A DNA stretch of 64,000 nucleotides from Bacillota bacterium (GTDB lineage Bacteria; Bacillota; Dehalobacteriia; UBA4068): NCBI GenBank assembly GCA_050949225.1, contig JBMNFI010000002.1, positions 197,942 to 261,941 on the forward strand. Direction: 5' to 3'. The position numbers were made by a program, and so were the translations under genes. The notes beneath the pieces are model-generated. The model was given only the letters and a program-made list of their open reading frames with translations, had not been told where the DNA came from and made no database searches. This document shows, piece by piece, positions 7,802 through 28,732 of this stretch; the first letter of the stretch is position 1; every line of letters starts with the position of its first letter.

Positions 7802-7831
7802 TAAATGAAATATATATTAGTGGGTGATCTG

Positions 7832-13459: not shown

Positions 13460-14117
13460 TAATCTGGAGCGTTTGCCGATTTCTGCGATTAAGCAATATG
13501 CCTATTGCCGGCGTCGTTTTGGCCTAATGTTTATTGATAAAGAGTGGGCCGACAACTATAAAATTGTTGAGGGGGAGTTTTTACATGCCAAGGTTGACGA
13601 CCCCTTTTTCAGTGAAAAAAGAGGCGATATCTATGTCAGCAGAAGTGTTCCTGTTTATTCTGATAAAGATAATTTATACGGTATAGCTGATATTATCGAG
13701 TTTATTAAAGATGATGATGGTGTTGAAATCGGCACTAAAAAAGGGTTGTGGAGTATTAACCCCATAGAGTATAAAAATGGCAAGCCCGAAAAAAGTAATG
13801 CAGATGCTTTGCAATTGCTGGCTGTGGCCATTTGTTTGGAAAAGATGTTTAAGATTCATCTTGAACAAGGGGATATTTATTATGGTCGATTGCGGCGGCG
13901 CAAGCGAGTTGTTTTTGACGCTGAGCTGCGAGAAAGGCTGAAGGAAATATTAGCGGGGATTAAGCATATTTTGGACACGCAGCAAATACCGGAAAAAACG
14001 CCGGATCAAAATTGCAGCTTATGTTCTTTAGTCAATATTTGTTTGCCGGAAATTTTTCACAAAAAACAAATTACACGTGATCGAATCAACAATTTGTTGG
14101 TAAGAGGTGGGAGATGA
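13446..14117 (+). CDS. cas4: CRISPR-associated exonuclease Cas4 (RecB-like nuclease with C-terminal Fe-S cysteines)
   Basis: Motif YAYCRRRFGLMFIDKEWADN, a RecB nuclease core (DIIEF..., QLLAVAICLE) and a C-terminal CSLCSLVNIC cysteine cluster. Confidence 0.9.
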   Translation: MKKCDNLERLPISAIKQYAYCRRRFGLMFIDKEWADNYKIVEGEFLHAKVDDPFFSEKRGDIYVSRSVPVYSDKDNLYGIADIIEFIKDDDGVEIGTKKGLWSINPIEYKNGKPEKSNADALQLLAVAICLEKMFKIHLEQGDIYYGRLRRRKRVVFDAELRERLKEILAGIKHILDTQQIPEKTPDQNCSLCSLVNICLPEIFHKKQITRDRINNLLVRGGR

Positions 14118-15145
14118 AAAAACTTTTAAACACACTCTATGTGACAACTCCATTATCATATTTATCACTTGAAAATGAGAACATTGTAATTTTGCTGGAG
14201 GAAAAGGAAAAATTTCGTATACCTTTTGCTAATGTAGAAGGCATAGTTTGTTTTGGTTATATGGGTGCAAGTCCTGCACTGATGGGCAAATGTGCTGAAA
14301 ACAATATCTCTTTAAGTTTTTTGAGTCCCAGTGGGAAATTTTTAGCTCGAGTAACCGGTAAAACTAAAGGGAGTGTGCTTTTACGAAAAAAACAATATCA
14401 GTTTGCAGAGGACCGTCAAGCATCTTTGTTTTTGGCACAGAATATAGTCGCTGCCAAGCTTTTTAATTCCCGTAATACGATTGAACGCTCTATCAGGGAT
14501 AATGCAGATGCCGTGAAGATATCTAAGTTAATAGATGTTTCAAAATTATTAAAGGGTAATCTCCAAAAAGCTTACGATTTCCATGATTTAGATGAATTGC
14601 GTGGTTTTGAAGGTGCTTATGCCAAGGCTTATTTTAGTGTTTTTGATGAGATGATTCTGCAACAGAAAAAGCATTTTTATTTTACTGAACGCAATAAAAG
14701 ACCCCCATTGGATAATGTCAATTGTATGTTGTCATATCTTTATATAATCCTTGCCTTAGAGATCACAGCAGCTTTAGAGACTGTAGGATTAGACCCATAT
14801 GTGGGATTTATGCATCAGATTAGGCCGGGGCGTGCTTCTTTGGCACTGGATTTGTTGGAAGAATTACGTTCCTATTTAGTGGACAGGCATATTTTAACGT
14901 TGATTAATTTAAAGCAGATGACTAATAAGGATTTTCATAAAAAGGAAGGTGGTGGGATTTTGTTGACCGATGAGAGGCGGAGAAAATTATTAGATTCTTG
15001 GCAGAAGCAAAAGAAAGAAAAGATCCGTCATCCCATTATCAATGAAAAAATTGAAATTGGCTTAATTCCTTATGTGCAGGCGCAATTAATGGCTAGATTT
15101 TTGCGCGGGGATGTTGAGGAGTATCCGCCATTTTTGTGTAGGTGA
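14114..15145 (+). CDS. cas1: CRISPR-associated endonuclease Cas1
   Basis: 343 aa, ATGA overlap with cas4, Cas1-typical blocks (LYVTTP...LENENIVI, GFMHQIRPGRASLALDLLEELR). Confidence 0.93.
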   Translation: MKKLLNTLYVTTPLSYLSLENENIVILLEEKEKFRIPFANVEGIVCFGYMGASPALMGKCAENNISLSFLSPSGKFLARVTGKTKGSVLLRKKQYQFAEDRQASLFLAQNIVAAKLFNSRNTIERSIRDNADAVKISKLIDVSKLLKGNLQKAYDFHDLDELRGFEGAYAKAYFSVFDEMILQQKKHFYFTERNKRPPLDNVNCMLSYLYIILALEITAALETVGLDPYVGFMHQIRPGRASLALDLLEELRSYLVDRHILTLINLKQMTNKDFHKKEGGGILLTDERRRKLLDSWQKQKKEKIRHPIINEKIEIGLIPYVQAQLMARFLRGDVEEYPPFLCR

Positions 15146-15149
15146 GAAT

Positions 15150-15440
15150 ATGTTTGTAGTGATTGCTTATGATGTCAATACGGAAACGCGAGAGGGACGA
15201 AAAAGACTGCGGTTAGTGAGCAAAGCTTGCCAAAATTATGGTCAGCGTGTCCAAAATTCTTTATTTGAGTGTTTGATTGACTATGGGACTTTTTTAATTT
15301 TAAAAAAAGAGTTGGAAAGTATTGTTGATGAGGATTTAGACAGCCTGAGATATTATTATTTGGGCAACAAATGGCAAAAGAGAGTGGAGCATTTTGGTGC
15401 CAAAGGTGGCTATGATCCTGAGGGAACAATTATTATATAG
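15150..15440 (+). CDS. cas2: CRISPR-associated endoribonuclease Cas2
   Basis: Starts MFVVIAYDVNTETREGRKRLRLVSKACQNYGQRVQNSLFEC. The track ORF begins at an upstream alternative start, but the conserved Cas2 N-terminus starts at ATG 15150. Confidence 0.9.
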   Translation: MFVVIAYDVNTETREGRKRLRLVSKACQNYGQRVQNSLFECLIDYGTFLILKKELESIVDEDLDSLRYYYLGNKWQKRVEHFGAKGGYDPEGTIII

Positions 15441-15584
15441 GTTTGCGAACCATAAGTGACCATTTTTGGTTATTTTGTTGATACGGCTGTTTTTAGTGGC
15501 CTTTTGTTTTAAAGAGTTGTTATTGTTTTGTCCGCCCCATGCGGTAGATGTGATGAATAATGCCTGTCCAGGGCATTTTCTAGA

Positions 15585-16086
15585 GTCGCACCCCGCAGGG
15601 GGTGCGTGGATTGAAATACAAGTATTACCAGAGCTGGAAAGAAAGATTTTGTCGCACCCCGCAGGGGGTGCGTGGATTGAAATCGGAAACGGCAAAGCGT
15701 ATGACCCCGCCAAAAGTGTCGCACCCCGCAGGGGGTGCGTGGATTGAAATTCTTAACTGTCTGCACAACATTAAATAATCCAACCGTCGCACCCCGCAGG
15801 GGGTGCGTGGATTGAAATTTTCTGATTTTGTGAAACTTTTCGGGATTGGTCGGTCGCACCCCGCAGGGGGTGCGTGGATTGAAATCCGTTATACCATTTA
15901 TTACGTAAGTTTTAACAACGTCGCACCCCGCAGGGGGTGCGTGGATTGAAATCATCGATTAGCTCTGTGACGATAAAATTAAGCTGTCGCACCCCGCAGG
16001 GGGTGCGTGGATTGAAATAAAATTGTTGATAAGCTCTCCGTCATAGAGGGTTGGTCGCACCCCGCAGGGGGTGCGTGGATTGAAAT
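15585..16086 (+). CRISPR. CRISPR array, 8 direct repeats of 33 bp (GTCGCACCCCGCAGGGGGTGCGTGGATTGAAAT) with 7 spacers of 33-35 bp; leader about 144 bp on the cas2 side
   Basis: Repeats begin at 15585, 15651, 15718, 15786, 15853, 15920, 15986 and 16054, all identical. The repeat is a typical type I-C repeat. The last repeat is not degenerate. Confidence 0.97.
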
Positions 16087-16996
16087 TTAGTGCAACAGCA
16101 GCAATCATCTCTACCTCGCCTGTTTTGACTGCGCCGGCTGTACTGAAATCAGGGAGCCAAGTCTGAACAGGGGCAACGCCCGCCATGCTGACTGCATGGA
16201 ATCCATCAACCCCCATCCGTGCAAAATAGATAGAGCTTGTGCCGTCCACACCTGACGTACCGATGATATCATTGTTACTTCCGGGTTTTGCGCCAAGATC
16301 AATCAGGGGAATACCGTTATACATGGAAACGTTGTTGCCCCATTCATCACGTGTTTCCTGATATTTACCATGAACTTTGGCGAGATACTCAAGAGTGGAA
16401 ATCATGTCACCATTGCCCATAATTGCAGAAGGCTTCCCATCAAGCTTTCTTAAAGCTTTATTTAAGGCGAGAAGGAAAGCACCGCCATTTGTTTCAATGT
16501 TCGCCGCGGTGGAAAGGTCAATGATATTCCCGGCATTAAATTCGGTTGCAGATCCCAATAACGCGGAATCTAAGCCATCAAAGGCATTTGCATTGACTGC
16601 CGAATCACCATTGATCACAGTGTCGCAAAACAGAGCCGCTGCGGCTTTAATTTTTTGTTCCATTTGTAATGTTACTTCACTTATGATACCCCCCATGTCC
16701 GCGATAACGCGGTCAATCTGGAAAGAACCGCCGAAGACCTTTAAGTCGACAGTATAGCGCTGTTTACCAACTTCCTGCGGATTATACTCAGCGTTTACCG
16801 CACGAAAAGCCGCGGTGGGTTGTGTAACCAGGCGAGTATAACCATAAGTTAGCGTTGCGCCGCCACCGGTGGGGGAAACACAATCATCAAAAACCATGTT
16901 ATCAAGCAAAAAGGAGCTTTTGCGGAATTCGTCAATCACTCCCATTTGTAAATCATCCTGTACGTTTTTCTTAGCTTCTTGTAATGTTACTGGCAT
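15959..16996 (-). CDS. phage major capsid protein; only 16087..16996 is capsid-derived, and the 3' end of the ORF reads through CRISPR repeat 8 and spacers (gene truncated or fused by the array)
   Basis: About 300-aa Gly/Ala-rich capsid-like product directly downstream of a scaffold gene. The last 43 codons (..FNPRTPCGVRPT..ISIHAPPAGCD..) are translations of the CRISPR repeat. Confidence 0.6.
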   Translation of the reverse strand: MPVTLQEAKKNVQDDLQMGVIDEFRKSSFLLDNMVFDDCVSPTGGGATLTYGYTRLVTQPTAAFRAVNAEYNPQEVGKQRYTVDLKVFGGSFQIDRVIADMGGIISEVTLQMEQKIKAAAALFCDTVINGDSAVNANAFDGLDSALLGSATEFNAGNIIDLSTAANIETNGGAFLLALNKALRKLDGKPSAIMGNGDMISTLEYLAKVHGKYQETRDEWGNNVSMYNGIPLIDLGAKPGSNNDIIGTSGVDGTSSIYFARMGVDGFHAVSMAGVAPVQTWLPDFSTAGAVKTGEVEMIAAVALNFNPRTPCGVRPTLYDGELINNFISIHAPPAGCDSLILSSQS

Positions 16997-17022
16997 ATTA
17001 TTTCTTCCTTTCGTCTGTTAAA

Positions 17023-17631
17023 TTAATCAGAGCTATTACCGGGGAATAATTTCGCTTTTATTGATTCCTCCAGCCCCTCCGGCTTAGGCGGCTCTGTTCT
17101 TTGTGCCGGATCTTTTTCCTCTCCCGGCTTCATTCCTTTTGGGACTGCCGGCGTAGGATTATCGAATTTGAAACAAAAGTTCTTTTCCTCGTCTTTAGTT
17201 AACGCTGTGATTTGGTCGCCGAGACCGACAATCTCGCCTTCCTTAACTGTGGCAGTTTCTAAAAACTCTGCCAGATAGACCTTGACTACTTTAGGGTCTC
17301 GTGCACCGGCTTTCAGCAAAGCAGATTCTACAATGGCATTTTTTTGTACTGTTAGTAATTCAGCTGCCATGCGTTCAGCTTCAGCTTTGTTGTCTTCTTG
17401 CAGCTTCTTGATTTGCGCCTCCAGCTCTTTATTGTCCGTGTTGGACTTTTGGAGTTCTTTCAGCTGCTTATCACGCTCTGAGACAGTACCTTTGAGGGTG
17501 TCCCTCTCGGTAATCATCTCATCGAGTCGCGACTTCGGCACAAAGCCTTCCAGTGCTTTCTTGTGTTCTGCAACCACCTTGTCGGCTGTTGCATCGTCGA
17601 TGTTCAAACTGGTCAAAAACTCTTTTTTCAT
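17023..17631 (-). CDS. phage scaffolding protein
   Basis: 202 aa, acidic and coiled-coil rich (KELEAQIKKLQEDNKAEAERMAAELLTVQ). Position is between the head-morphogenesis and capsid genes. Confidence 0.65.
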   Translation of the reverse strand: MKKEFLTSLNIDDATADKVVAEHKKALEGFVPKSRLDEMITERDTLKGTVSERDKQLKELQKSNTDNKELEAQIKKLQEDNKAEAERMAAELLTVQKNAIVESALLKAGARDPKVVKVYLAEFLETATVKEGEIVGLGDQITALTKDEEKNFCFKFDNPTPAVPKGMKPGEEKDPAQRTEPPKPEGLEESIKAKLFPGNSSD

Positions 17632-17815
17632 CTCGATTCTTCCTTTCTTTCAAAACATTTTTTTCCCGGTTCAGTCCGGTATTATTGTCTTTTAGTTTTG
17701 CGCCTTAAAATACCAAAAAGGCGATTTTTTTTATAAAAAAAGAGCGCCTACGATAGTAGGTACTCTTAATGTTATATCTGGGTATGAAAAACCACCTCAA
17801 ACAATCAAGGTGGTT

Positions 17816-18043
17816 TTACGGCAACGCGTTAATTATGTCTTGATATTCAAAAGCCTTTTTTGTCATTTGTTGTTTTTCATCAAGGCAGCACCGCAACAAA
17901 TAATCAGATGCTTTTTCCTCTATATCAAGCAACTGTTTTTCGGAAAATTCATTATTAGCAGGACAATTAAAGCCTGCTTCTGCTAATAATTCTTGTTGTC
18001 TTTTACTAAAATCTACTTTCATTATCCTACTCTCCTTTTCCAT
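17816..18043 (-). CDS. small protein overlapping the 3' end of the MuF gene; candidate immunity protein for the MuF C-terminal domain
   Basis: 75-aa ORF overlapping the MuF stop by 17 nt. It is duplicated nearly identically at 25232..25459. Confidence 0.5.
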   Translation of the reverse strand: MEKESRIMKVDFSKRQQELLAEAGFNCPANNEFSEKQLLDIEEKASDYLLRCCLDEKQQMTKKAFEYQDIINALP

Positions 18044-19373
18044 ATTTTTTAATTCTACTTTTCCCGGTTTTCCATGTAGTAATCAGTGTTTTTGTTTCGG
18101 GGTTAACCGCTACTGTCGCCCTTTGCCCAATAAATTGAATAGAAGGCTTCCCTGAAGCATTAATACTAACCTCTGTTATGTGTAACGGGGTCTTTAAAGC
18201 CTCTATTGCGGCACTTACTTCAACAGCACGTTCCTCCCCTCGAGCTATCAAATGAGGGTTTATATGCTCTATAGTTAGTCCGTTCTGTGCTTCTACTCCT
18301 ATTATACCCTGCCAGTCGCTTTCTTTCAACACATAATTTTTATACCATTCTTGATAGGTCATATCGCCCTTAACATATTGTATCTCACCATCTGCACCTC
18401 TAGCTGCCCGCTCAAACTCTTTGCTGAACTCATCATCAAAGTGCGGACAAGTAGTGCCACGACAGCGTGTATGAAAGGGCGGCACAGTCACTCCGGGAGA
18501 ATAATCCGCCATCTTAACAACCTTGCCGTCCATCTCTTGACAAATGGTGCAAACGAGGTCGTCAAGCGTCTCGACAACCTCCACCGCCTCCACATCGAGC
18601 TCTTTATAAGCCTCCTTTTGGCCGGCAGCCACAAAGTACGTTGTTTCCGTATCTAAAAGGGCAGCGGCTCTGTGCTTTTTAACACCGAACTTTGCAGCAA
18701 AATCCTTAACACCAACATACGGCGTTTCACCAGTCATCAAGTTACGCATCAGCTGCGACTGCAAATCGCCAATAAGCGTCTGTTTATCGCGCCATATTCG
18801 ATCACTAAAATTCAGGCCATCAACCGCCCAAGGCGTTTTGATCAAGCGGTTAATCGCCGCCACATCAAGCGGCGAGATTGACCAGACTGCCCCAACACCT
18901 TTTTGAACATTAAAAGCCGTCCGATAGTATGTATCATCTAAAATCTTACGCAATACTTCATCTGTTAGGGCGTATTCCCTAGCATATAAAACCTCAACAG
19001 CCTGCTGCATCTCAATTTTGAGAGCCTCTAAGCGCGAGATATGAACACGAGCTGCAGCGTTTTCCAGCTGCTGAATCCATTTGCCATTGACTTCTGCCTC
19101 TTGTCCTCTGGCAATGTATTCTTCAAGCGTCCATTTAAATTCTTTTAATTCACCGGCAGAAAGTCTTTTATGCGCTTCAGCCAATGGAATTTTATTATTT
19201 TTAGCAAATTGCGTATACCAACGAGAGATTTTATCATCAACCATGTGCATCGCCCTTGTATACTCTTTATTTATCTCTTCCAGCGCAAGAGAAGCAGTTT
19301 GGTGGGCATCTCTGGCAACGTCCTCTGATCGTTTGGTCCAATAAGCCGCACTCCGCTTGAGTAACTCTGTCAT
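18027..19373 (-). CDS. phage head morphogenesis protein, SPP1 gp7 / Mu F family, with a C-terminal extension
   Basis: MuF-family motif ..CTICQEMDGKVV...PPFHTRCRGTTCP. Sits downstream of the portal gene. About 100 C-terminal residues extend beyond the MuF core. Confidence 0.8.
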   Translation of the reverse strand: MTELLKRSAAYWTKRSEDVARDAHQTASLALEEINKEYTRAMHMVDDKISRWYTQFAKNNKIPLAEAHKRLSAGELKEFKWTLEEYIARGQEAEVNGKWIQQLENAAARVHISRLEALKIEMQQAVEVLYAREYALTDEVLRKILDDTYYRTAFNVQKGVGAVWSISPLDVAAINRLIKTPWAVDGLNFSDRIWRDKQTLIGDLQSQLMRNLMTGETPYVGVKDFAAKFGVKKHRAAALLDTETTYFVAAGQKEAYKELDVEAVEVVETLDDLVCTICQEMDGKVVKMADYSPGVTVPPFHTRCRGTTCPHFDDEFSKEFERAARGADGEIQYVKGDMTYQEWYKNYVLKESDWQGIIGVEAQNGLTIEHINPHLIARGEERAVEVSAAIEALKTPLHITEVSINASGKPSIQFIGQRATVAVNPETKTLITTWKTGKSRIKKYGKGE

Positions 19374-19376
19374 CGG

Positions 19377-20885
19377 CTACTCACCTCTTTTGTCCGGCTC
19401 GTCTTCCTCTTTTGTGGAGCTCCAGTCAGTAGGGTAAGCGTCTTCCTCTCTAACTCTTTCAGCCTCAATGCGTTTCATCTCTTTTTCTACATCAGAAATC
19501 CACGGGTGATTACTGATTGCGGTTTCTTTCGATATTAAGGCAGTAGAATTGAGGCAGTTTGCGATAATTTCACTTTCATTGATCATAATGTCACGATTGA
19601 AAATGAAGTCGATCTTCTCGTTTTCAAAATCGCCCTTGCCTTTGGTAGCCAAATAGTTGTTAACAAACCACAATAGGCTCTCCATGGCTGCTTGGTATTC
19701 CGTTTCCATACCGTTTGCATCAAGATCAATGTCACTGTACATGCTCTGGATGTTCATCTGATTAGGGCTGCCGCCCATCATGCGATCATCTTTGGCATCA
19801 TAGCCCATGGCATTTTCGATAATAGCCTTTTTAAACATATCAACAATCGATTCATAGTTTTTAGCATTGACCTCGATGTGGATACTATCTAAACCACCTG
19901 ATTGACCATCAAAAGATTTAACCTTAACTGCACGATACTGCATCAAATTATGCCTAAACGTGCCCAGATCTTCGCCATCATAGTTCTTTAATACAAGAAT
20001 CGAGCTCTGGCCGTCTTCCTGCATAGCGTTTTGAAAATCCGACATCATCAAGTTTAACGAATCTTGTAAATTTTTAACTTTAACAATCAAAGGAATTTCT
20101 TTGGAGTTGTGCTTAAAAGGTATCAATGGCAAACGCTCCCAATGCACCCCTTGCTCTACCGTCCCCCTTCTGTCCTCAGCACTATTGTTAACGACTATAG
20201 AGGCATAGTGGCTAAAAGGGTTAAGGCTATCTGTGATAAGACGTTCTTCTTTATCGTCCCAATCATAATATTCAATACCTTTGAGCGTGTAAACTTCAAC
20301 TTTTTTCTTAATCTTTTCCTCAGTGCCCTCATACTCAATCACTTCATAAATACGAATGGCGTACTCAAGGTCTGTATGCTCTGCATCTTTCCAACTGGGG
20401 ATAATTTCCCAGGGCGAAAAACGCCTAAAAGCAAGCTCTGATTGTTCATCATAATAAACATACAACCAGGCTAAGCCGCAATTAAGCGAATCAGTGCCCA
20501 TACTCCGCAATAATTTGTGAAAACGCTTGTCAAACAGTTCAGATAAGGCCTCTTGATATTCCGCGCTTTCTGTATCAAGCGTTAAGACTTGGCCGACAAA
20601 ATAATTTGTTTTTTGATCAACCATTTTAGCATACTGGTTATGGACAGTACGATTATTGGGCAAGTTTTCTACCGGCTCCAACCTGCCACTTTTGCCAATG
20701 ACCGTACGTTTACGTTGTAAAATATCGTGCTCCCCACGATAATACTTTTCGCCGGTAAGCATAGTTTTGCGTGCTTTAGAGCTTAACCAATTCTTGATTT
20801 GCTGTTCAAGAATCTCTTTTTTGGTCAAGGCGGTTTTGGCATGCGCCTCTATTTTTCTATTAATAAGTTGCGTATCAGTTATCAT
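19377..20885 (-). CDS. phage portal protein (SPP1 gp6-like)
   Basis: 502 aa between TerL and the MuF protein, with typical portal size and composition. Acidic C-terminus. Confidence 0.8.
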   Translation of the reverse strand: MITDTQLINRKIEAHAKTALTKKEILEQQIKNWLSSKARKTMLTGEKYYRGEHDILQRKRTVIGKSGRLEPVENLPNNRTVHNQYAKMVDQKTNYFVGQVLTLDTESAEYQEALSELFDKRFHKLLRSMGTDSLNCGLAWLYVYYDEQSELAFRRFSPWEIIPSWKDAEHTDLEYAIRIYEVIEYEGTEEKIKKKVEVYTLKGIEYYDWDDKEERLITDSLNPFSHYASIVVNNSAEDRRGTVEQGVHWERLPLIPFKHNSKEIPLIVKVKNLQDSLNLMMSDFQNAMQEDGQSSILVLKNYDGEDLGTFRHNLMQYRAVKVKSFDGQSGGLDSIHIEVNAKNYESIVDMFKKAIIENAMGYDAKDDRMMGGSPNQMNIQSMYSDIDLDANGMETEYQAAMESLLWFVNNYLATKGKGDFENEKIDFIFNRDIMINESEIIANCLNSTALISKETAISNHPWISDVEKEMKRIEAERVREEDAYPTDWSSTKEEDEPDKRGE

Positions 20886-20900
20886 CTGATCACCTTTCTT

Positions 20901-22166
20901 TTAATCAAAGCTAAACAGTGACCCTTTGGCCAATTCTTCGAGGGCATATCTCATGGCGTCCATCAAATGGTTAAAATCATCTATTGGTCTGTTAAGGACA
21001 ACGCCCTCGCGGTTTGTATCCCAAATATAATTTGACAGCTCCATCACCGTGTTAGTGCAAGAGGGGTGCACGATAATTTTATAGCCCTGTACGTGTTGGA
21101 TGCCGTGCCTAATACTGTCAGGCCCTTTTCTTGCCGCCCTGATATGCGGAATGTCAGCATCCCTTAGCTCTTGTATTGACTTTGGCTCTGCGCTATCCGC
21201 GATAATTGTTTCTTTACGATAACCTTTGTTGATGATGTGCTCAGCAATCATTTGGTTTGTCAGTTGTTTTTTATAAAATTCATCGAAAACATAGATCTCT
21301 TTGGCTTTTTGATCAACCGCCATTGCAATAAATGCTGATGGGTCGTTGGTATAACCAAAGTCTAAGCCAAAAGTCGTCTTGAGGTACGGTCGCTTTTTGA
21401 GTAATTCTGCTATTTTAAAGTCGTGCTCTTCCCAATTGTCATAAATCAGACCTTCGGCAATGCCCCAATTCCCCAACCCCTCAACCTGATAGCGGCGCGG
21501 TTGGTTGATGCGCATTTCCTCAAAAACCTGTTTATCCGCCTCATCTAAAAATTCATTACACATAAAATTTGTTGTATCGGCAAAAATTAAGTCACTTTCT
21601 GTATCAAAAAACCGTTTTTTAATCCAATGCTTGTCCGACCATGGATTAAACGTCAGTGTCAGCTGTTTAAAATAGCCTTCCGGCACAATGCCGCGCAGCG
21701 AAGTGTCCAGTTTGTTAAAATCAGCCTCATTCATAATCTGGAAGGCCTCTTCAATCCAAAACCAACACAATACGCCTTTATCAACGGTGATTGAGGTGAT
21801 GCTCTGCGGGTCATCCATGCCGCGAAACAGAATCTTTTGACCTGTTGGCTTGTATCTAATTTCCATAGGGTTTTTACTAAACCCCCAAGCATCCGCCGCC
21901 CCTAAACGATTAATCGCCCAAATTAACTGGGCGAAGGTTGAGTCTTTATGGGTGTTGAAATACCGTCGGACAACCAGCAGATTTGCTTCTGGGTATTTCA
22001 TCAGGTTATATATACACCAAAGGGCAGTCGTACAGCTTTTCTTACTGCCACGACCACCTTTTAGTACTCTATATCGTACTTTTGAGTGCCAAAACGAGGA
22101 ATACCCTCTGCCGATAACGCTCGGTAAGTGAATCCTAGGACGCTCAATCCTCGAGTTCATTTTCAC
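20901..22166 (-). CDS. terL: phage terminase large subunit (PBSX/terminase_6-like)
   Basis: N-terminal Walker A (KGGRGSKKS), ATPase followed by a nuclease domain with conserved acidic residues. 23-nt overlap with terS. Confidence 0.88.
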   Translation of the reverse strand: MKMNSRIERPRIHLPSVIGRGYSSFWHSKVRYRVLKGGRGSKKSCTTALWCIYNLMKYPEANLLVVRRYFNTHKDSTFAQLIWAINRLGAADAWGFSKNPMEIRYKPTGQKILFRGMDDPQSITSITVDKGVLCWFWIEEAFQIMNEADFNKLDTSLRGIVPEGYFKQLTLTFNPWSDKHWIKKRFFDTESDLIFADTTNFMCNEFLDEADKQVFEEMRINQPRRYQVEGLGNWGIAEGLIYDNWEEHDFKIAELLKKRPYLKTTFGLDFGYTNDPSAFIAMAVDQKAKEIYVFDEFYKKQLTNQMIAEHIINKGYRKETIIADSAEPKSIQELRDADIPHIRAARKGPDSIRHGIQHVQGYKIIVHPSCTNTVMELSNYIWDTNREGVVLNRPIDDFNHLMDAMRYALEELAKGSLFSFD

Positions 22167-22638
22167 CTTCGAAAACAGGCATTGTAATATTTATATTAGA
22201 CGTTGTAGCCCACATATCGTGGTATTTGCCGATCAATTCAAGCGCTTTATTGGCATCGGCAGTCTTGTTTGGCACTTCAACAACTTCGGCAGTCTGCCTT
22301 TCAGTAGTAATCTTTCGTCCTTTGCTGTTATAATCGCTGTCTTTGTGGGTCAATGTAACAACGACACTCTCCATATCTTTACGACGGCCTATGTTCGTCA
22401 GGCGCATCAAAATCTCTGATACGCCGGCAACACATTCGTCCTCTACTTTGGACATTAATTCATTTTTATAATCAATGATATGCGGCATTTGCAACAAATT
22501 GCAAGTCGTGACAGCAAGAGATCGAGGCTTACCTTTATAACCTGCATCTCTTGCGGCTTTTTCCCTATCCAAACCGTTAGCCACATAGTTTTGAACAAAC
22601 AGCTTTTGTTGATCAGTTATTTGTTTCTTTTTAATCAC
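22144..22638 (-). CDS. terS: phage terminase small subunit (HTH DNA-binding)
   Basis: 164 aa. N-terminal HTH region (QQKLFVQNYVANGLDREKAARDAGYKG) is typical of TerS. Immediately upstream of terL. Confidence 0.7.
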   Translation of the reverse strand: MIKKKQITDQQKLFVQNYVANGLDREKAARDAGYKGKPRSLAVTTCNLLQMPHIIDYKNELMSKVEDECVAGVSEILMRLTNIGRRKDMESVVVTLTHKDSDYNSKGRKITTERQTAEVVEVPNKTADANKALELIGKYHDMWATTSNINITMPVFEGENELED

Positions 22639-22655
22639 TTAAAATCACTTCCTTT

Positions 22656-23225
22656 TTACGCCGTTCTGCGCCACATGTAACATGTGATATATGGCGGTAA
22701 ATTGCCGCTGTTTCCTGAACCGGAGTAGCCCGTGTTGCCTGTTACTGGGTGGTCGTGTTTGGCATCAATTGCTATTCTGTCGGCATTACGTGCTGCTGTT
22801 TTTATTTCCACATTGGAATTCAAACTGATTCCGCCCTGCACATCATACGACAGTATCCCCGACGAATGGACAGGAAAACCTTGTGATCCACCTGTTAAGG
22901 TCCTGATATCGATCGTACCTGATAAGGCTTTTTCTGATGTTGTCAATGTTCCGTTATCATGTCTGTGGCTGTCTAGATACTTACTACCGCCTGTCTTTTG
23001 TGGGGTATTAAACTCTGCTTGTGTCGTATCCACCCCCACAGGCACTCTACCCGTTCCCCATGCGACCCATGTTCCACCCAATAGACTGCCTGGATTGGTT
23101 GCATTTACAGACATATATATTGCTCCTACGGGGTATGCTTTGTCTATATTAAAAGACTTACCATCGACATAGGCTTTGATTTTTTGCCAAAGATACAGTA
23201 ATCCATTATTGTCTAAAATTTTCAT
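22656..23225 (-). CDS. phage tail-fibre / receptor-binding-like protein (paralogue of 23239..23817)
   Basis: Start ATG 23225 preceded by AGGCGGTGG. Its N-terminus MKILDNNGLLYLWQKIKAYVD is shared with the upstream paralogue while the C-terminus is divergent and Gly/Thr/Ser-rich. Confidence 0.5.
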   Translation of the reverse strand: MKILDNNGLLYLWQKIKAYVDGKSFNIDKAYPVGAIYMSVNATNPGSLLGGTWVAWGTGRVPVGVDTTQAEFNTPQKTGGSKYLDSHRHDNGTLTTSEKALSGTIDIRTLTGGSQGFPVHSSGILSYDVQGGISLNSNVEIKTAARNADRIAIDAKHDHPVTGNTGYSGSGNSGNLPPYITCYMWRRTA

Positions 23226-23238
23226 TTTATGCCACCGC

Positions 23239-23817
23239 CTAACTGGCCATGATGGTATCGATTTCAGCATTTGTAATTGCCGCCAAATCATTAAACGTGA
23301 CATAGTCTGTCAAATCAACATCCGTTGAACCGATTTTCTCGTACGCTGATAAATCTGTCAGCCAAATATATTCATCGTAGCTGCCTCCGGAATTAGCCAC
23401 CAGATAAATTATGCCTTTCACTCCTTGTGTGGGCAAGGTCGCAACAATCTGAAAATCAATGCTTGTGATCCCCGACAAGGCGCTATTAATCGCTGTCTGC
23501 ACTTGGCTAGAGGTTTGATATCCCGCCCCATTTGTCAGCTGGTTGTTATTTGTTGGGATTTGATTAGCTGCCGCAATCCCAAGACCCGCTTTTGTTAAAG
23601 TGCCAGTGATTGTTGTGCCGTCAAGAGTTGGCTTGTTGACAATGGTTGTATAATCCGGCGCATTGATTAATCCAAGCAGTGCGTCGGTTAAGTCATTAGT
23701 TGACAGCCCCATATTTTCTACTTTATCAACTTTACTGTTAATTAAACTTTTGAGTTTTTGATTGTAGTATAATAGCCCGTTTTCATCCAAATATTTTTTA
23801 GGTGTCATGTTTTTCAC
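23239..23817 (-). CDS. phage tail-fibre / receptor-binding-like protein
   Basis: Conserved N-terminal KKYLDENGLLYYNQKLKSL followed by a Thr/Gly/Asn-rich variable region, as in siphovirus fibre proteins. Confidence 0.5.
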   Translation of the reverse strand: MKNMTPKKYLDENGLLYYNQKLKSLINSKVDKVENMGLSTNDLTDALLGLINAPDYTTIVNKPTLDGTTITGTLTKAGLGIAAANQIPTNNNQLTNGAGYQTSSQVQTAINSALSGITSIDFQIVATLPTQGVKGIIYLVANSGGSYDEYIWLTDLSAYEKIGSTDVDLTDYVTFNDLAAITNAEIDTIMAS

Positions 23818-23820
23818 TCC

Positions 23821-24075
23821 TTAAAATTGATTATTAATAATTTCTTCAATCTCCATATTTGTCAAACTGTCTTCCGCTAAATTCCGATTACCCTTCAAGG
23901 CAACCGCATTAATTGACGGTAGGTTTTCCAGCTCGTTATAGTCACTTGTCATAATGTATTCTGTGACTATATCGCTGTCCAAAACCAGCGAACTCTCACT
24001 CTGCCCGGACAGATCAATGACAAAATCCTCTTCTTCTGCTAATTTTATTTTTTCATCCATAACGCACCACCTCAT
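23821..24075 (-). CDS. hypothetical small acidic protein (phage-associated)
   Basis: 84-aa ORF, first gene pair of the leftward operon, 4-nt overlap with the upstream ORF. Confidence 0.4.
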   Translation of the reverse strand: MRWCVMDEKIKLAEEEDFVIDLSGQSESSLVLDSDIVTEYIMTSDYNELENLPSINAVALKGNRNLAEDSLTNMEIEEIINNQF

Positions 24076-24281
24076 TCATTCTCTGCAAACGTGATCTCCG
24101 GCAGAATTTCTAACTCCCCCAAAACCGTCTGCTTATAGGTTGGGTTAGCCCTATATAACTGGATATCAAAATAATATTTGCCAAAATGAAGGCTGTCCGT
24201 CTCTTCCGGCAAAATAACAAAGTGGTAACGACCTTCTTCGTCCTTTGTTATCTCATTTCGGCTGAGGCGTTTTTGAAACAA
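24072..24281 (-). CDS. hypothetical small protein (phage-associated)
   Basis: 69-aa ORF, translationally coupled with 23821..24075. Confidence 0.4.
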   Translation of the reverse strand: MFQKRLSRNEITKDEEGRYHFVILPEETDSLHFGKYYFDIQLYRANPTYKQTVLGELEILPEITFAENE

Positions 24282-24287
24282 AAAATC

Positions 24288-24316
24288 TTGACTACACGTG
24301 TTACACGTGTTATTCT
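24288..24316 (+). promoter_or_regulatory. putative hicAB promoter with a tandem ACACGTGTT operator-like direct repeat in the spacer
   Basis: TTGACT (-35), then ACACGTGTTACACGTGT in a 17-bp spacer, then TATTCT (-10), about 25 nt upstream of the hicA ATG. Confidence 0.35.
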
Positions 24317-24341
24317 ATGTATAGAGCGAAGGTGCTAACAA

Positions 24342-24506
24342 ATGAAATTCCGGGAACTCGAAAAGATCATAAAAGCGGATGGCTGGGAGCATATTAAGAC
24401 AGTAGGATCATATCACCAGTACAAGCACCCAGCAAAACCCGGAAAGGTTACGATACCGTACTCAAACAAAGATTTAAAATTAAACACCATAAATAGAAAG
24501 GACTGA
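24342..24506 (+). CDS. hicA: type II toxin HicA (mRNA interferase), 54 aa; not in the ORF track because it is under 60 aa
   Basis: Translation MKFRELEKIIKADGWEHIKTVGSYHQYKHPAKPGKVTIPYSNKDLKLNTINRKD matches the HicA consensus (ELxKLLxxDGW..xGSHHxxKHPxxPG.VTVP). Sits immediately upstream of hicB. Confidence 0.75.
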   Translation: MKFRELEKIIKADGWEHIKTVGSYHQYKHPAKPGKVTIPYSNKDLKLNTINRKD

Positions 24507-24511
24507 ACAAT

Positions 24512-24913
24512 ATGAAACTTATATATCCTGCCTGCCTTTATCCTTGTGAAGAGGGTGGTTACACTGTGGTCTTTCCTGATCTGCCCGGTTGTGTAACTGA
24601 AGGGGATACTTTAGAAGATGCCCTTGATATGGCCGCTGATGCTGCCTGTGGTTGGATACTAGGAGAGACTGAGGATGACAATCCTTTCCCCTCTGCCTCA
24701 GATATCAAAGGTATAATAGCAGATGAATACAAAGAAGGATTTACTTCCCTTATCCCTCTGGACATGGAGAAATACGCTAAAAACCATAGCAATAAGTCTG
24801 TTAATAAAACTTTAACTATACCGGCTTGGTTAAATACTGCTGCAGAAAAAGAGAATGTCAACTTCTCTCAGGTACTGCAAGAGGCACTAGCCAAAAAGCT
24901 TGACGCTATGTAA
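24512..24913 (+). CDS. hicB: type II antitoxin HicB
   Basis: N-terminus LIYPACLYPCEEGGYTVVFPDLPGCVTEGDTLEDALDMA is the HicB/UPF0150 RNase-H-like fold signature. C-terminal RHH-like DNA-binding tail. Confidence 0.85.
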   Translation: MKLIYPACLYPCEEGGYTVVFPDLPGCVTEGDTLEDALDMAADAACGWILGETEDDNPFPSASDIKGIIADEYKEGFTSLIPLDMEKYAKNHSNKSVNKTLTIPAWLNTAAEKENVNFSQVLQEALAKKLDAM

Positions 24914-24922
24914 AACAATATA

Positions 24923-25022
24923 GTCGCACCCCGCAGGGGGTGCGTGGATTGAAATAATTTGATCGCTTGGGTTCGTCGGCGATTGAGCTGTCGCACCCTG
25001 CAGGGGGTGCGTGGATTGAAAT
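24923..25022 (+). CRISPR. CRISPR mini-array: 2 repeats and 1 spacer (34 bp). The second repeat is degenerate (C to T at position 10), as expected for a trailer-end repeat
   Basis: Repeat at 24923..24955 is identical to the main-array repeat. The repeat at 24990..25022 has one mismatch. Same orientation as the main array 8.8 kb upstream. Confidence 0.9.
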
Positions 25023-25510
25023 TTTACAGTGGTGTTTTTTTCTACCGTTAGTAATTCAGCTGCCATGCGTTCAGCTTCTTGATTTGTGCCTCCGGCTCTA
25101 TTGTCTTTTGGTTTAACGTCTCAAAATACCAAAACGGCGATTTTTTATATAAAAAAGGAGCGCCTACGATTATAGGTACTCTTAATGTTATATCTGGGTA
25201 TGAAAAACCACCTCAAATAATCAAGGTGGTTTTACGGCAGCGCGTTAATTATGTATTTATATTCAAAAGCCTTTTTTGTCATTTGTTGTTTTTCATCAAG
25301 ACAGCACCGCAGCAAATAATCAGATGCTTTTTCCTCTATATCAAGCAACTGCTTTTCGGAAAACTCATTATTAGCAGGACAATTAAAGCCCGCTTCTGCT
25401 AATAATTCTTGCTGTCTTTTACTAAAATCTACTTTCATTATCCTACTCTCCTTTTCCATATTTTTTAATTCTACTTTTTCCGGTTTTCCATGTAGTAATT
25501 AGTGTTTTTA
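25023..25510. repeat. partial direct duplicate (with internal deletions) of 17345..18110: internal scaffold fragment, junction and small ORF
   Basis: Long near-identical stretches shared with 17352-17382, 17408-17428 and 17690-18110, for example CTCTTAATGTTATATCTGGGTATGAAAAACCACCTCAAA..AATCAAGGTGGTTTTACGGCA. Confidence 0.8.
25232..25459 (-). CDS. second copy of the 75-aa small protein (candidate immunity protein), now orphaned
   Basis: 73 of 75 residues identical to 17816..18043. The upstream MuF gene is absent except for its last few dozen nucleotides. Confidence 0.5.
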   Translation of the reverse strand: MEKESRIMKVDFSKRQQELLAEAGFNCPANNEFSEKQLLDIEEKASDYLLRCCLDEKQQMTKKAFEYKYIINALP

Positions 25511-25562: not shown

Positions 25563-25808
25563 TTAGTTTTCAAAATAGGGGTTTATATCTACTTGAGATC
25601 TAATTTCTACGCCATAATGCGCGGCATTTAAGACATTAACTTCTTTGCCATTAAGCAAATAGGATTGGATCTGAGAGCCGTCAACATCTTCCAAGTAATC
25701 ATTTTTTATTAACGCAGGTATATTTCTTTCGAGAGCAGCGCACTGCCTCTTGAAAATATCTTCGTCAAAAACATTACAAATCACATATTCATAATTGTAT
25801 TTATACAT
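25563..25808 (-). CDS. small paralogous protein A (about 80 aa), candidate orphan immunity protein
   Basis: Paralogue of 26348..26587 and 27399..27641 (shared ..C.VFD.DIF..QC.ALE.NIP.L...DY..DVD.SQIQ.Y.LN.K.V.VLN....GVE..S.VD..PYFEN). Followed by a hairpin and T-run terminator at about 25527-25553. Confidence 0.5.
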   Translation of the reverse strand: MYKYNYEYVICNVFDEDIFKRQCAALERNIPALIKNDYLEDVDGSQIQSYLLNGKEVNVLNAAHYGVEIRSQVDINPYFEN

Positions 25809-25882: not shown

Positions 25883-26279
25883 TTAAATGGCTAAATAATT
25901 CAATGCAAAATGATATCTATCTAGACGTTTCAAATCTTTTTTTAGTCACTTCTGATAATCTAGAAAGATCAGAATTATGTCTAAGGTCTGCAATTTTCAC
26001 TTTTTTTGCTAAAGGATTATTCTTTACTCTCTTCAGGTATTCAGTATAACCTTCTCTTTTGCACTTTGTAATAATTGTTACAGCTTCTATAATTTCTTGA
26101 CAAAAGCCAGCTTCAATAAGTTGTTCTTTTGTGTAATCGCTGTCTTATAAAACATCATGCGAAAGGGCAACGATCTTTTCTTTTTCTGTGTAGACCATTG
26201 CAGCGACTGTTAAAGGGTGGTTGATATACTCGTTTCCTCCCTTGTCTTTTTGACCTTTATGTGCTTTTTGAGCAATCAT
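25883..26279 (-). pseudogene. decayed small HD-domain protein resembling a RelA/SpoT-type (p)ppGpp hydrolase (small alarmone hydrolase-like); in-frame TAA plus a +1 frameshift
   Basis: Minus-strand translation MIAQKAHKGQKDKGGNEYINHPLTVAAMVYTEKEKIVALSHDVL*DSDYTKEQLIEAGFCQEIIEAVTIITKCKREGYTEYLKRVKNNPLAKKVKIADLRHN.. matches the RSH hydrolase N-terminus (H..GQ.R.sGEPYi.HPl.VA..l....D...i.AALLHDvvEDT....eei...FG..Va.lV.gvTK...). The TAA at 26145-26147 replaces the conserved Glu, and the frame shifts at the A7 run 25937-25943. Confidence 0.5.
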
Positions 26280-26347
26280 CAAAGCCTTCGCCAACAAGTT
26301 TACGCGCCTCGCTTTCGGTATTAATCCATAAAATGGTTTAATCGCTA

Positions 26348-26587
26348 TTAGTTTTCAAAATATGGTAACAGATCTACTTCGGAATTTACTTCTACACCAA
26401 ATATGGGCGTATTTAAAACTCTGACCTTTTTATCATTGAGCCAGTATATTTGAATTTGAGAGCTATCTACATCAACAGCATAGTCGCCCTTTTTTAATTC
26501 TGGTATATTCTTTTCAAGAGCAGTACACTGTTCCTGAAAAATATCAGAATCAAATACCTGACAAATAAAATATTCATGTTTGAACAT
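26348..26587 (-). CDS. small paralogous protein B (79 aa), candidate immunity protein for the upstream 154-aa domain
   Basis: Paralogue of 25563..25808 and 27399..27641. Starts 3 nt after the stop of 26590..27054. Confidence 0.5.
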   Translation of the reverse strand: MFKHEYFICQVFDSDIFQEQCTALEKNIPELKKGDYAVDVDSSQIQIYWLNDKKVRVLNTPIFGVEVNSEVDLLPYFEN

Positions 26588-26589: not shown

Positions 26590-27054
26590 TTAGCCCTCCA
26601 ATCCAAGTAATTTATTGATTTCTTTGTTTGACCGTGTAGAACTGTCGATTAAAGCCCTATAAAGATCATCGTCTGATTTATACAGGCTCCTGTATTTATC
26701 AACGTAAAAACTAAATTCCCGCAGAGGTGCATCTCTCACCAATCTTTCCAGTTCTTTCATGTCAATCATCATGTCCCTTGCTTGCTGCTTAAAGGTGTTT
26801 CTCAGTTCATGCGCCTGCATAGCCTGATCTTTTAGAGATAGTGTGCCGTCTAACATTGACGGAATTTTCTTATTGTGGGCTATGTACCAAGATCTTACTT
26901 CATAATTACCCAACATTCGATCAAATTTCAGCGAATAGTCCAAAGTATCAAGTCTATTTTGCTTACCGGCTTTTAACGCTTTCCATTTGTCAATTTCATT
27001 ATACTTTAAATATTGAAAATCCACAAGATTATTTGTATGCTTAATCCTAATCAA
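26590..27054 (-). CDS. orphan copy of the C-terminal domain found on the MuF-domain protein 27638..28732 (candidate orphan toxin-CT module)
   Basis: 154 aa, homologous over its length to the last ~150 residues of 27638..28732 (for example QAMQAHELRNTFKQQARDMMIDMKE vs QARQAYSLRNQYKEEARNLMADMAE, and SSTRSNKEINKLLG vs TATKSNEKVNKEVG). Confidence 0.5.
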   Translation of the reverse strand: MIRIKHTNNLVDFQYLKYNEIDKWKALKAGKQNRLDTLDYSLKFDRMLGNYEVRSWYIAHNKKIPSMLDGTLSLKDQAMQAHELRNTFKQQARDMMIDMKELERLVRDAPLREFSFYVDKYRSLYKSDDDLYRALIDSSTRSNKEINKLLGLEG

Positions 27055-27398: not shown

Positions 27399-27641
27399 TT
27401 AGTGCTTAATAAGCAGGTCGTCAAGTGGGTACGTGGATTTTACATACACCGCATCTACCAATGTGTCCATATAGATATCGATTTTTTCATTGTTTGCCGT
27501 AATATAAACAGCAATCAAAGAGCCATCCACATCTTCAAGCAGATCTTTCTTGACAGTAAAAGCCTTCTCAATTACTTTACATTGTGCATCAAAAACAGTT
27601 TTATCCACTTCTTTTGCGATAGTATAATCGTATTTCATCAT
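27399..27641 (-). CDS. small paralogous protein C (80 aa), candidate immunity protein for the C-terminal domain of 27638..28732
   Basis: ATGA overlap with the upstream MuF-domain gene. Paralogue of 25563..25808 and 26348..26587. Confidence 0.5.
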   Translation of the reverse strand: MMKYDYTIAKEVDKTVFDAQCKVIEKAFTVKKDLLEDVDGSLIAVYITANNEKIDIYMDTLVDAVYVKSTYPLDDLLIKH

Positions 27642-28732
27642 TTGTAACCCACCTCCTTGTTCACTTTTTCGTTAGACTTTGTCGCGGTCTTAATAATGTC
27701 TTTTAAGGCTTCTTCTCGTGTTAGCCCCTTACGCTCAATCTTATCATTAAGCAAATAATCAAAATCTGGAGCGGGGCTCTTGGCATCAAGCTTCGCCCTT
27801 TCTGCCATATCGGCCATCAGGTTGCGAGCCTCTTCTTTGTATTGGTTGCGCAAGGAATATGCTTGCCTTGCCTGTTTTTCTAGGCTCTGGGCGGTATCTA
27901 CTTGAGACGGAATAGACTTAATATGCTCATCATACCACTGTCTAACAGCTAGATTGCTTGCCTTGATATTGTTCGCCGCAAGTTCCTGATACTCCATTTT
28001 GGCGAATATATCACGGCCTGCCTTATCTAAAGCTATTATACCACTTTTAGCAGACAATTCCAAGTTCTGGACCCCGGCTCTTTCGCGGAAATAGTCACGA
28101 CTTAAGCCGGTTTGACTGATAAAATCTCTTTGCCTTGCTTGCCATTCTCGCACCTTGCCTTTAGCAAAGCTGTTGTCTAGTCCTGCTGCGTCATAAGCGC
28201 TGCCCTCACGCTTCCAGCGTCTTATTTGGCGCTCAATATAGCGTTGATGTTGAGTAGCATCATAAAGGCTCATCTTTTCGCCGTTGAAAGTGACTTCTCG
28301 ATTGTTGAGATCTCGCAAGCGGTCAGCATCATAGGCCTTTTCGTCTAGGCCTTCGACAAAGGGAAACCAGTCATGGCGACAATTTGCGCCTTTAAATCCT
28401 GTTACATCACCATAACCTATATCATCTAAAGATAGATAGCCATCTCTGCCTGATATACTCACCAGCTGCCCTTGCCATACTGCATGGCTTGGTCGAGCTG
28501 AATGATGAGCCGTCAATTCCATTAAGTCCGTATCCATCTCTTTGGCTCTGGCCAGCTGCAAATCTCCCGCTGTCTGGTTCACACCAGTCATAATTGCTCT
28601 TCTTGCAGCCACATCCAAGTAATCAGTATGTCCACCGGGATATGTGATAGATGCCAGCCCCTTAACAGTTAGGTCTCTAATCGCTCCTTTAACTGCCGTC
28701 CGGTAATCAAAAGCACCAGAGATGATTTGCAT
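27638..28732 (-). CDS. MuF (SPP1 gp7)-domain protein with a ~150-aa C-terminal extension; candidate MuF polymorphic toxin, detached from any portal or terminase genes
   Basis: MuF core motifs HHSARPSHAVWQGQLVSISG and KGANCRHDWFPF parallel the motifs in 18027..19373. The C-terminal ~150 aa are paralogous to 26590..27054. Confidence 0.55.
   Translation of the reverse strand: MQIISGAFDYRTAVKGAIRDLTVKGLASITYPGGHTDYLDVAARRAIMTGVNQTAGDLQLARAKEMDTDLMELTAHHSARPSHAVWQGQLVSISGRDGYLSLDDIGYGDVTGFKGANCRHDWFPFVEGLDEKAYDADRLRDLNNREVTFNGEKMSLYDATQHQRYIERQIRRWKREGSAYDAAGLDNSFAKGKVREWQARQRDFISQTGLSRDYFRERAGVQNLELSAKSGIIALDKAGRDIFAKMEYQELAANNIKASNLAVRQWYDEHIKSIPSQVDTAQSLEKQARQAYSLRNQYKEEARNLMADMAERAKLDAKSPAPDFDYLLNDKIERKGLTREEALKDIIKTATKSNEKVNKEVGYK

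Follow-up and report, generated by a model that had tools for sequence, protein, structure and literature searches.

We analyzed a 64,000-nt stretch of DNA, called the window below, from an uncultured Bacillota lineage (GenBank assembly GCA_050949225.1, contig JBMNFI010000002.1, positions 197,942 to 261,941 of the forward strand). On its minus strand, among phage head genes, lies a small decayed gene that, once repaired, resembles Aph1 (adenosine 3'-pyrophosphohydrolase 1), an enzyme from a Bacteroides caccae prophage whose structure is available as PDB 7SMG (Ahmad et al. 2023, PMC10083569). This gene, hereafter the aph1 pseudogene, and its two lesions are located as follows.

25883 to 26297, minus strand: aph1 pseudogene, 137 codons when repaired, recognized by its translation, by profile matches and by the same sequence in two other assemblies.
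26147 to 26145, minus strand: premature TAA at codon 51, at Glu51 of the HDxxED metal-binding motif, where the 50-aa open reading frame (ORF) ends.
25943 to 25937, minus strand: A7 homopolymer with a +1 A insertion at codon 119/120; A6 restores the aph1 frame.

The gene probably starts at the TTG at 26297, which GAGG precedes at a distance of 9 nt. A first-pass annotation had placed the gene at 25883 to 26279, which is right save for 18 nt missing at the 5' end. Translated from TTG 26297 on the minus strand, the frame reads LLAKALMIAQKAHKGQKDKGGNEYINHPLTVAAMVYTEKEKIVALSHDVL, a stop, and then DSDYTKEQ...KIADLRHNSDLSRLSEVTKK; past the premature TAA the same frame goes on as DSDYTKEQLIEAGFCQEIIEAVTIITKCKREGYTEYLKRVKNNPLAKKVKIADLRHNSDLSRLSEVTKK. 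The stop corresponds to a single G-to-T change (GAA to TAA) at a glutamate that is invariant in an alignment of 25 homologues. On the 3' side of the A7 run, the homologous reading is found one base out of frame, as DLKRLDRYHFALNYLAI followed by a stop, and the uncorrected frame terminates at the TAG 25919-25917 while the original stop is the TAA at 25885-25883. Four family-invariant residues of the homologue alignment, D121, R124, Y128 and L135, are recovered solely in the frame-corrected reading. The ORF list of the window contains just the 50-codon N-terminal piece (26145 to 26297). The similarity to the family is nevertheless independent of the repair, because a tblastn search matched the raw, unrepaired DNA (26297-25932) to a Holdemania homologue right through the stop, with 56.6% identity over 122 aa and an E value of 4.6e-42.

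The first-pass annotation had called the gene a true pseudogene on account of the TAA at the HDxxED glutamate and the frameshift at the A7 run, and both lesions hold. A segment of 561 nt that includes the TAA and the A7 run is identical in a contig of a Joint Genome Institute (JGI) metagenome (3300060803) and in the Logan assembly SRR31065934. The lesions are thus identical in three assemblies and therefore real and fixed in this population; on this ground a sequencing artefact was rejected. That the gene might not be dead, with its stop and frameshift due to faulty assembly or to programmed recoding in the A7 homopolymer, has in its favor that homopolymer runs are common sites of both sequencing error and programmed slippage. 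However, the three assemblies come from different data sets, and the TAA lies in the catalytic motif, where slippage cannot bypass it. Furthermore, the numbering of locus tags in the public annotation of this metagenome-assembled genome (MAG) leaves out ACOX05_05765 between the 81-aa and the 79-aa genes, whereas the protein accessions stay consecutive, which suggests that the NCBI annotation pipeline likewise placed no protein at the pseudogene. We consider a functional gene to be extremely improbable.

Across the alignment of the 25 homologues, all 26 invariant columns are retained in the repaired protein save E51, which is the stop. The other oddity is L46S just before the HD motif, at a position where leucine is 90% conserved. 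Since the invariant columns are nearly all kept, the copy looks recently inactivated rather than long decayed. Neither the catalytic H..HD..ED..D metal site nor an uninterrupted frame remains (TAA at E51, +1 frameshift), and the present product, of at most 50 residues and devoid of E51/D52 and of the C-terminal substrate-binding half, is predicted to do nothing. Judged by its sequence, the gene is a member of the Aph1 family by descent and not a working enzyme.

The repaired protein was then assigned by profile and PDB matches. It matched Pfam HD_4 above the gathering score (E 5.9e-7), the N-terminal hydrolase region of NCBIfam spoT_relA (E 8e-16) and phrog_990, annotated as 'metal-dependent phosphohydrolase' (E 1.4e-51). 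This outcome of the Pfam search that the first-pass annotation had suggested bears out its reading of the translation as a RelA/SpoT-type HD hydrolase. The strongest match in the PDB was to B. caccae Aph1 (7SMG, '(p)ppApp hydrolase'; E 1e-34, around 45% identity), with a gap-free alignment of repaired residues 1-135 to chain residues 7-141; the PDB matches that followed were 25 orders of magnitude weaker. Aph1-like enzymes are set apart from (p)ppGpp hydrolases by D24, R96, D116, R119, K133 and Y134, among which D24 and R119 determine the adenine specificity (PMC10083569). The corresponding residues of the repaired protein are D18, R90, D110, R113, R127 and Y128, so that five of the six are identical and K133 is replaced conservatively by Arg; R127 and Y128 are visible only after frame correction. 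The label '(p)ppGpp/(p)ppApp hydrolase' given by the first-pass annotation was therefore correct as to the family and too generic as to the substrate, the specificity residues being kept as D18/R113. The pseudogene is best described as a dead Aph1-type enzyme with a predicted specificity for (p)ppApp.

The published biology of Aph1 agrees with the toxin association that had been proposed for the gene. Apk2 is a MuF minor-capsid protein whose C-terminal domain produces (p)ppApp and arrests growth; IapK/Tis1 is a partner-specific immunity protein that blocks the active site of the Apk2 toxin, and Aph1 is a second, enzymatic immunity protein of MuF-Apk2 toxins that degrades the toxic product (PMC10083569, PMC12226406). 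The three genes form an Apk2-IapK-Aph1 module in the phage head-morphogenesis region (PMC10083569, PMC12226406), which has been studied in B. caccae (PMC10083569) and in Streptococcus pneumoniae, Mannheimia and Pasteurella prophages (Paulet et al. 2025, PMC12226406); such modules are also treated by Bartoli et al. (2023, J Mol Biol), as cited in PMC12226406. Aph1 is interchangeable between species and protects against non-cognate Apk toxins (PMC10083569; PMC12226406). RelA-like domains were already listed among MuF toxins by Jamet et al. (2017). By analogy, the intact 137-aa enzyme encoded here would have cleaved the 3'-pyrophosphate off (p)ppApp by means of a metal held by His and Asp residues, giving back ATP or ADP, and would have protected the lysogen from any (p)ppApp-synthesizing toxin regardless of its sequence, for instance MuF-Apk2 or the Apk1/Tas1 toxins of type VI secretion systems (T6SS). 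Its usual place in phages is the third, after MuF(or min_cap2)-Apk2tox and iapK, where Apk2tox designates the toxin domain of Apk2.

In the window, the pseudogene is surrounded by the following minus-strand genes.

27638 to 28732, minus strand: truncated minor capsid protein 2 (min_cap2, MuF-like), 364 aa, covering Pfam positions 152-366, with about the first 150 codons missing.
27399 to 27641, minus strand: imm80, 80-aa putative immunity gene, overlapping the stop of the 364-aa gene by 4 nt.
26590 to 27054, minus strand: CT2, N-terminally truncated orphan C-terminal-domain fragment, 154 aa, recognized by its similarity to the 364-aa protein.
26348 to 26587, minus strand: imm79, 79-aa putative immunity gene, paralogue of the 80- and 81-aa genes and putatively cognate to the upstream CT2.
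25563 to 25808, minus strand: imm81, 81-aa orphan putative immunity gene, 61.5% identical to imm79.
25232 to 25459, minus strand: imm75, 75-aa orphan immunity candidate, 97% identical to the gene after the MuF-toxin candidate 18027-19373.
25023 to 25078, minus strand: scaffold fragment, recognized by a DNA match to a scaffold gene.

The 364-aa min_cap2 protein is extended by an all-alpha C-terminal domain (CT1) of around 110 aa, to which the last 105 residues of CT2 are 38% identical. At the DNA level, the homology between the imm79 and imm81 cassettes extends from the ribosome-binding site to a point 17 nt beyond the stop codon. Between the two cassettes the aph1 segment forms a discrete block, whose start is only 50 nt from imm79. 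Directly 3' of imm81 is a terminator-like hairpin with a T-run, and the scaffold fragment is part of a 58-nt match between 25021-25078 and 17325-17382. Read on the minus strand, the order is thus min_cap2 (27638-28732), aph1 pseudogene and scaffold fragment; the pseudogene occupies the position within the head-morphogenesis module, between portal/minor capsid and scaffold, that the hydrolase has in streptococcal and Holdemania prophages.

In an exhaustive profile search, 1383 cluster representatives contained the all-alpha domain. It invariably forms the very C-terminus, be it of Phage_Mu_F, Phage_min_cap2 or other proteins, and has the conserved motif RN..R..AR.LM.D ... KTATKTN..VNKELG. Its fold is confidently predicted to be all-alpha (predicted local distance difference test score of 89.5); the model matched no fold in the PDB, and the domain corresponds to no annotated family. 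In two unrelated contigs, homologues of the domain directly precede a protein of around 80 aa of the imm79 family, with the DVDGS motif in common. We propose that the all-alpha domain and its partner of around 80 aa are a candidate new MuF toxin/immunity family. The array in the window thus consists of CT1-imm80, the CT2 fragment with imm79, imm81 and imm75. Conserved pairing, a truncated second copy and a lone paralogue give it the build of a polymorphic-toxin locus that carries orphan modules. The orphan immunity array named by the first-pass annotation is borne out by a conserved pair of C-terminal domain and small protein, one truncated orphan pair, one lone small gene and the duplication of the 75-aa gene.

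We then searched the window for the two other members of an Apk2 module. No Apk2tox was detected in the window by tblastn with three Apk2tox sequences or by iterated profiles, and no IapK by tblastn with four sequences or by a profile run on every translated segment of 12 aa or more. The window therefore holds no Apk2tox domain and no Tis1/IapK gene before aph1, and without such a remnant the pseudogene is a true orphan. A 22-aa tblastn match to the Holdemania IapK at 26328-26266 (E 1.7), suggestive by its position, was discarded, as it is not colinear with the aph1 start and has a profile E value of 14. The resident C-terminal domains are not taken as alarmone synthetases, having no sequence similarity to Apk2tox, an all-alpha fold and no PDB match. 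A component of a defence system was rejected too, as PADLOC gave no meaningful match.

The relatives of the repaired protein place the gene in a consistent context. Its best matches in the phage collection were streptococcal prophages (55-57% identity), in which the hydrolase comes after terminase, portal, MuF (523-527 aa) and a 68/69-aa gene, in this order, and before scaffold. The streptococcal toxin domains are not recognized by Pfam and served to build Apk2tox profiles, which also detect long RelA/SpoT proteins. In a Holdemania massiliensis prophage (L005, 3938-6423; 56% identity), a min_cap2 gene is followed by an Apk2tox ORF, an IapK-like ORF, Aph1 and scaffold. There the Apk2tox has an ORF of its own, of 239 aa and with 39-40% identity to the streptococcal toxin domains; this ORF overlaps the end of a full-length min_cap2 gene instead of being fused to it, and the IapK-like ORF (about 5800-6010) is uncalled by the annotation. 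Two Clostridiales MAGs (L006, 936-1935; L007, 697-1696; 57% identity in one of them) carry intact iapK and aph1 downstream of two short decayed Apk2tox fragments, so that the toxin has decayed with both immunity genes retained; their neighbourhood is not phage. Many IMG/VR phages also have the hydrolase after MuF/min_cap2-Apk2tox-IapK, and the intact copies beside synthetase-bearing MuF toxins, which the first-pass annotation had advised looking for, thus exist. In the IMG/VR loci retrieved with the Aph1 alignment, Apk2tox is directly upstream in 54 of 80 and a MuF gene in 52 of 80. When redundancy was removed by collapsing the sequences at 80% identity, 20 clusters reached at least 50% identity to the window protein; 13 of these were Apk2-linked, compared with 20 of 66 clusters overall. 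The linkage is strong among the nearest relatives and not universal.

These contexts bear on the possibility that the gene was an ordinary accessory or housekeeping small alarmone hydrolase of a phage, for example one tuning host (p)ppGpp or countering a toxSAS-type defence, and that its position in the array is coincidental. Homologues of Aph1 indeed occur in 463 phage records, many of them from lytic Pseudomonas, Aeromonas and Vibrio phages, and in many chromosomal contexts (see also PMC10083569). Those homologues, however, have less than 50% identity to the window protein, and among phages the best matches are without exception streptococcal prophages with Apk2 linkage. The conserved D24/R119 specificity residues argue against a role in (p)ppGpp metabolism, the gene occupies the slot of Aph1 in Apk2 modules between minor capsid and scaffold, and no PADLOC defence matches were obtained. 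A housekeeping origin is therefore improbable, although less so than a functional gene.

How an aph1 gene can be orphaned is seen in other phages. The Bacteroides phage L124 (IMG/VR) carries MuF-Apk2tox, a Tis1-like gene and an Aph1 that is nearly identical to 7SMG over the aligned region. A second phage, L125, is 99.0% identical to L124 upstream and 99.5% identical downstream of one block of 0.9-1.0 kb (about 4995-5978), which holds Apk2tox and the Tis1-like gene in L124 and an unrelated C-terminal domain with a small gene in L125. The downstream breakpoint is the start of aph1, and an identical, intact aph1 has been left behind a non-Apk2 toxin in L125. This pair, to which L132 may be added, cleanly illustrates how a cassette is replaced in nature at a MuF toxin locus, and it demonstrates that a cassette swap sparing aph1 does happen in phages. 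In three other IMG/VR loci (L141, L147 and L158, about 2550-6411), a MuF ADP-ribosyltransferase resembling Bxa is followed by an ADP-ribosylglycohydrolase of around 280-300 aa and an intact aph1; here a (p)ppApp hydrolase is kept behind a toxin of different chemistry.

Taken together, we consider it likely that the pseudogene is a dead Aph1-type immunity gene that was orphaned when an Apk2-iapK cassette was replaced and that decayed afterwards. An ancestral phage would have carried an Apk2 module; recombination would have swapped the toxin domain and iapK for another C-terminal-domain/immunity cassette, as polymorphic-toxin loci usually do, and would have left aph1 orphaned downstream. The prophage would then have been reduced to a fragment of 3.7 kb without selection, in which aph1 would have gained the GAA>TAA change at Glu51 and the additional A. 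The past presence of Apk2 at this particular locus and the order of the events are what we infer, because no trace of Apk2 or IapK survives in the window.

Several observations weigh against this history. Beside the missing traces of both genes in tblastn and profile searches of the window, the best match of the IapK profile near the aph1 start is at chance level (E 14). Apk2 is absent from 7 of the 20 nearest Aph1 clusters, and the nearest of all (59.5% identity, L003/L004) is non-MuF, its neighbours being a weakly SIR2-like protein and a protein of unknown function. Among the top loci from species-representative genomes just 2 of 36 are Apk2-linked, in agreement with the report by Ahmad et al. 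(PMC10083569) that most Aph1 homologues are not close to MuF genes. In 5.8 billion proteins no homologue exceeded 62% identity to the repaired protein; likewise, scans of genome contigs and viral contigs for a closer intact orthologue recovered no locus from the source lineage. The IMG/VR relatives of the window min_cap2 gene (at most 59% identity) have neither aph1 nor the C-terminal domain of that protein. Finally, the immunity role of the 79- to 81-aa genes is read from their conserved pairing.

The main rival is that aph1 was acquired alone as a broad-spectrum orphan immunity cassette at a locus that never had Apk2, and decayed later. A single aph1 would be useful, as Aph1 cross-protects between species (PMC10083569; PMC12226406), and it would cover (p)ppApp toxins delivered by other phages or by T6SS. 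The segment is a discrete one between two homologous imm cassettes, the window contains no remnant of Apk2 or IapK, and extra immunity genes in MuF clusters were suggested in the discussion of the Bxa paper (Journal of Biological Chemistry 2024, PMC11699363). However, the near-identical sister phages show an orphan aph1 arising by replacement of the adjoining Apk2tox-iapK cassette, and Apk2 linkage is the majority state among the closest relatives. Lone acquisition is for these reasons rather unlikely, though clearly more credible than a housekeeping function. Whether by loss of its cassette or by lone acquisition, aph1 is an orphan immunity gene.

The replacement of an Apk2-iapK cassette is proposed to have been followed by decay, and the setting of the phage DNA, which is no ordinary prophage, is relevant to that decay. 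The window contains a complete type I-C cas operon (7805-15440; cas3 HD, cas3 helicase, cas5c, cas8c, cas7c, cas4, cas1, cas2), in which cas3 consists of two overlapping ORFs (7805-8554 and 8515-10065) that may be naturally split or frameshifted. At its 3' side, at 15585-16086, are eight perfect 33-nt repeats GTCGCACCCCGCAGGGGGTGCGTGGATTGAAAT of a clustered regularly interspaced short palindromic repeat (CRISPR) array, the eighth of which abuts a 3'-truncated major capsid gene. From there, 8.8 kb of phage head-module DNA (16087-24922) with genes for capsid, scaffold, imm75, MuF, portal, TerL, TerS, fibre-like proteins and HicAB fills the spacer slot between repeats 8 and 9. The array then continues with one further element.

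24923 to 25022, plus strand: CRISPR repeats R9 and R10 with one spacer, marking the end of the pseudogene-bearing phage fragment.

Repeat 10 abuts the truncated scaffold gene of the second phage fragment, that of 3.7 kb, which holds the aph1 pseudogene and is followed by chromosomal hcp. The junction of capsid, array and cas genes recurs in contigs of two JGI metagenomes, 3300061563 and 3300060803; in the latter, the contig reaches over repeats 9-10 next to HicB as well. None of the 8 spacers matches the window, and a scan of IMG/VR for a phage-borne mini-array with the repeat GTCGCACCCCGCAGGGGGTGCGTGGATTGAAAT gave no match. The phage fragments may have reached their spacer position by spacer-protospacer recombination, by repeat-repeat recombination or by aberrant integration. 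Their location in spacer slots explains why phage genes are found there without selection and decaying. The phage fragment adjoining the type I-C array is an odder feature than the pseudogene itself.

The two phage fragments differ in minor-capsid type (MuF versus min_cap2) and have in common the 75-aa gene (25232-25459 versus 17816-18043) and the 5' region of scaffold, with 90-97% identity. The C-terminal domain of the MuF protein 18027-19373 is also found on a min_cap2 protein in IMG/VR (L173). A HicA/HicB toxin-antitoxin pair (24342-24506 and 24512-24913, plus strand) lies at the edge of the 8.8-kb fragment, 9 nt from repeat 9. The ORFs 15509-15955, 15959-16996 (at its 3' end) and 24887-25066, with the peptides FNPRTPCGVRP, FQSTHPLRGAT and ISIHAPPAGCD, are translations of CRISPR repeats, and the '345-aa capsid' ORF continues from genuine capsid sequence into the array.

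In itself, the pseudogene adds a dead copy to a known family, and its context would not surprise specialists. Our literature searches found no description of an Aph1 pseudogene. For orphan immunity arrays at MuF loci they found the suggestion in PMC11699363 and no description; the word 'orphan' is absent from Jamet et al. (2017). The value of the pseudogene is that of a marker: it indicates that Apk2-type (p)ppApp modules, or the defence against them, have reached an uncultured Bacillota lineage, and it suggests that MuF/min_cap2 loci turn over their toxin domains and yet leave older immunity genes behind. We put forward more tentatively, as an idea that could well prove wrong, that orphan immunity arrays accumulate, through displacement of cassettes, at the MuF/minor-capsid toxin loci of temperate phages, and that Aph1 is preferentially retained in them, as it works against any (p)ppApp synthetase. 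If so, prophages would stockpile 'universal' immunity against toxins injected by competitors, the pseudogene would be a record of a past toxin repertoire, and its living form would be seen in the intact orphan aph1 genes that Bacteroides phages carry after MuF toxins other than Apk2. The comparison of L124 with L125 could guide work on the cross-protection of lysogens by orphan Aph1 against superinfecting Apk2 phages.

The closest known counterpart is B. caccae Aph1. Both proteins belong to a single-domain HD fold family, are colinear over the full length and have the HD and ED metal motifs with five of the six signature residues, and both are encoded in a phage head module downstream of a MuF-type protein. 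Unlike B. caccae Aph1, the copy in the window carries inactivating changes (a stop at E51, a +1 frameshift and L46S) and has neither an adjoining Apk2 toxin nor a Tis1/IapK gene. The modules of S. pneumoniae SPNA45 (SPNA45_00317-00319), Mannheimia and Pasteurella provide the closest phage homologues of the window protein (55-58% identity). The Apk2-IapK-Aph1 modules lie in the same slot as the window gene, between minor capsid/MuF and scaffold, and the hydrolase is their universal, interchangeable immunity component; in the window, the module is cut down to the hydrolase alone, and, in contrast to the Apk2 modules, the MuF-type protein is of the min_cap2 type with an unrelated all-alpha C-terminal domain and its own small partner.

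Small alarmone hydrolases are also reported to serve as type IV-like antitoxins of toxSAS (ATfaRel of FaRel; Jimmy et al. 2020, as cited in PMC10083569). Such antitoxins and Aph1 both neutralize by degrading the nucleotide product of the toxin and not by binding the toxin. The toxSAS are, however, two-gene toxin-antitoxin modules and not polymorphic toxins of a phage head module, and no toxSAS gene was found in the window.

The arrangement as a whole is comparable to the orphan arrays of contact-dependent inhibition (CDI) cdiA-CT/cdiI loci, of Rhs loci and of T6SS polyimmunity islands (Zhang et al. 2012, PMC3482391; Poole et al. 2011), which likewise leave older immunity genes in place. In the window as in these arrays, a full toxin-immunity pair is followed by a truncated orphan pair and then by lone immunity genes of several kinds, an order that displacement of cassettes would explain. 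Unlike in the CDI, Rhs and T6SS arrays, the trafficking domain in the window is a phage minor capsid protein, and one member of the array is of an enzyme type rather than a binding inhibitor.

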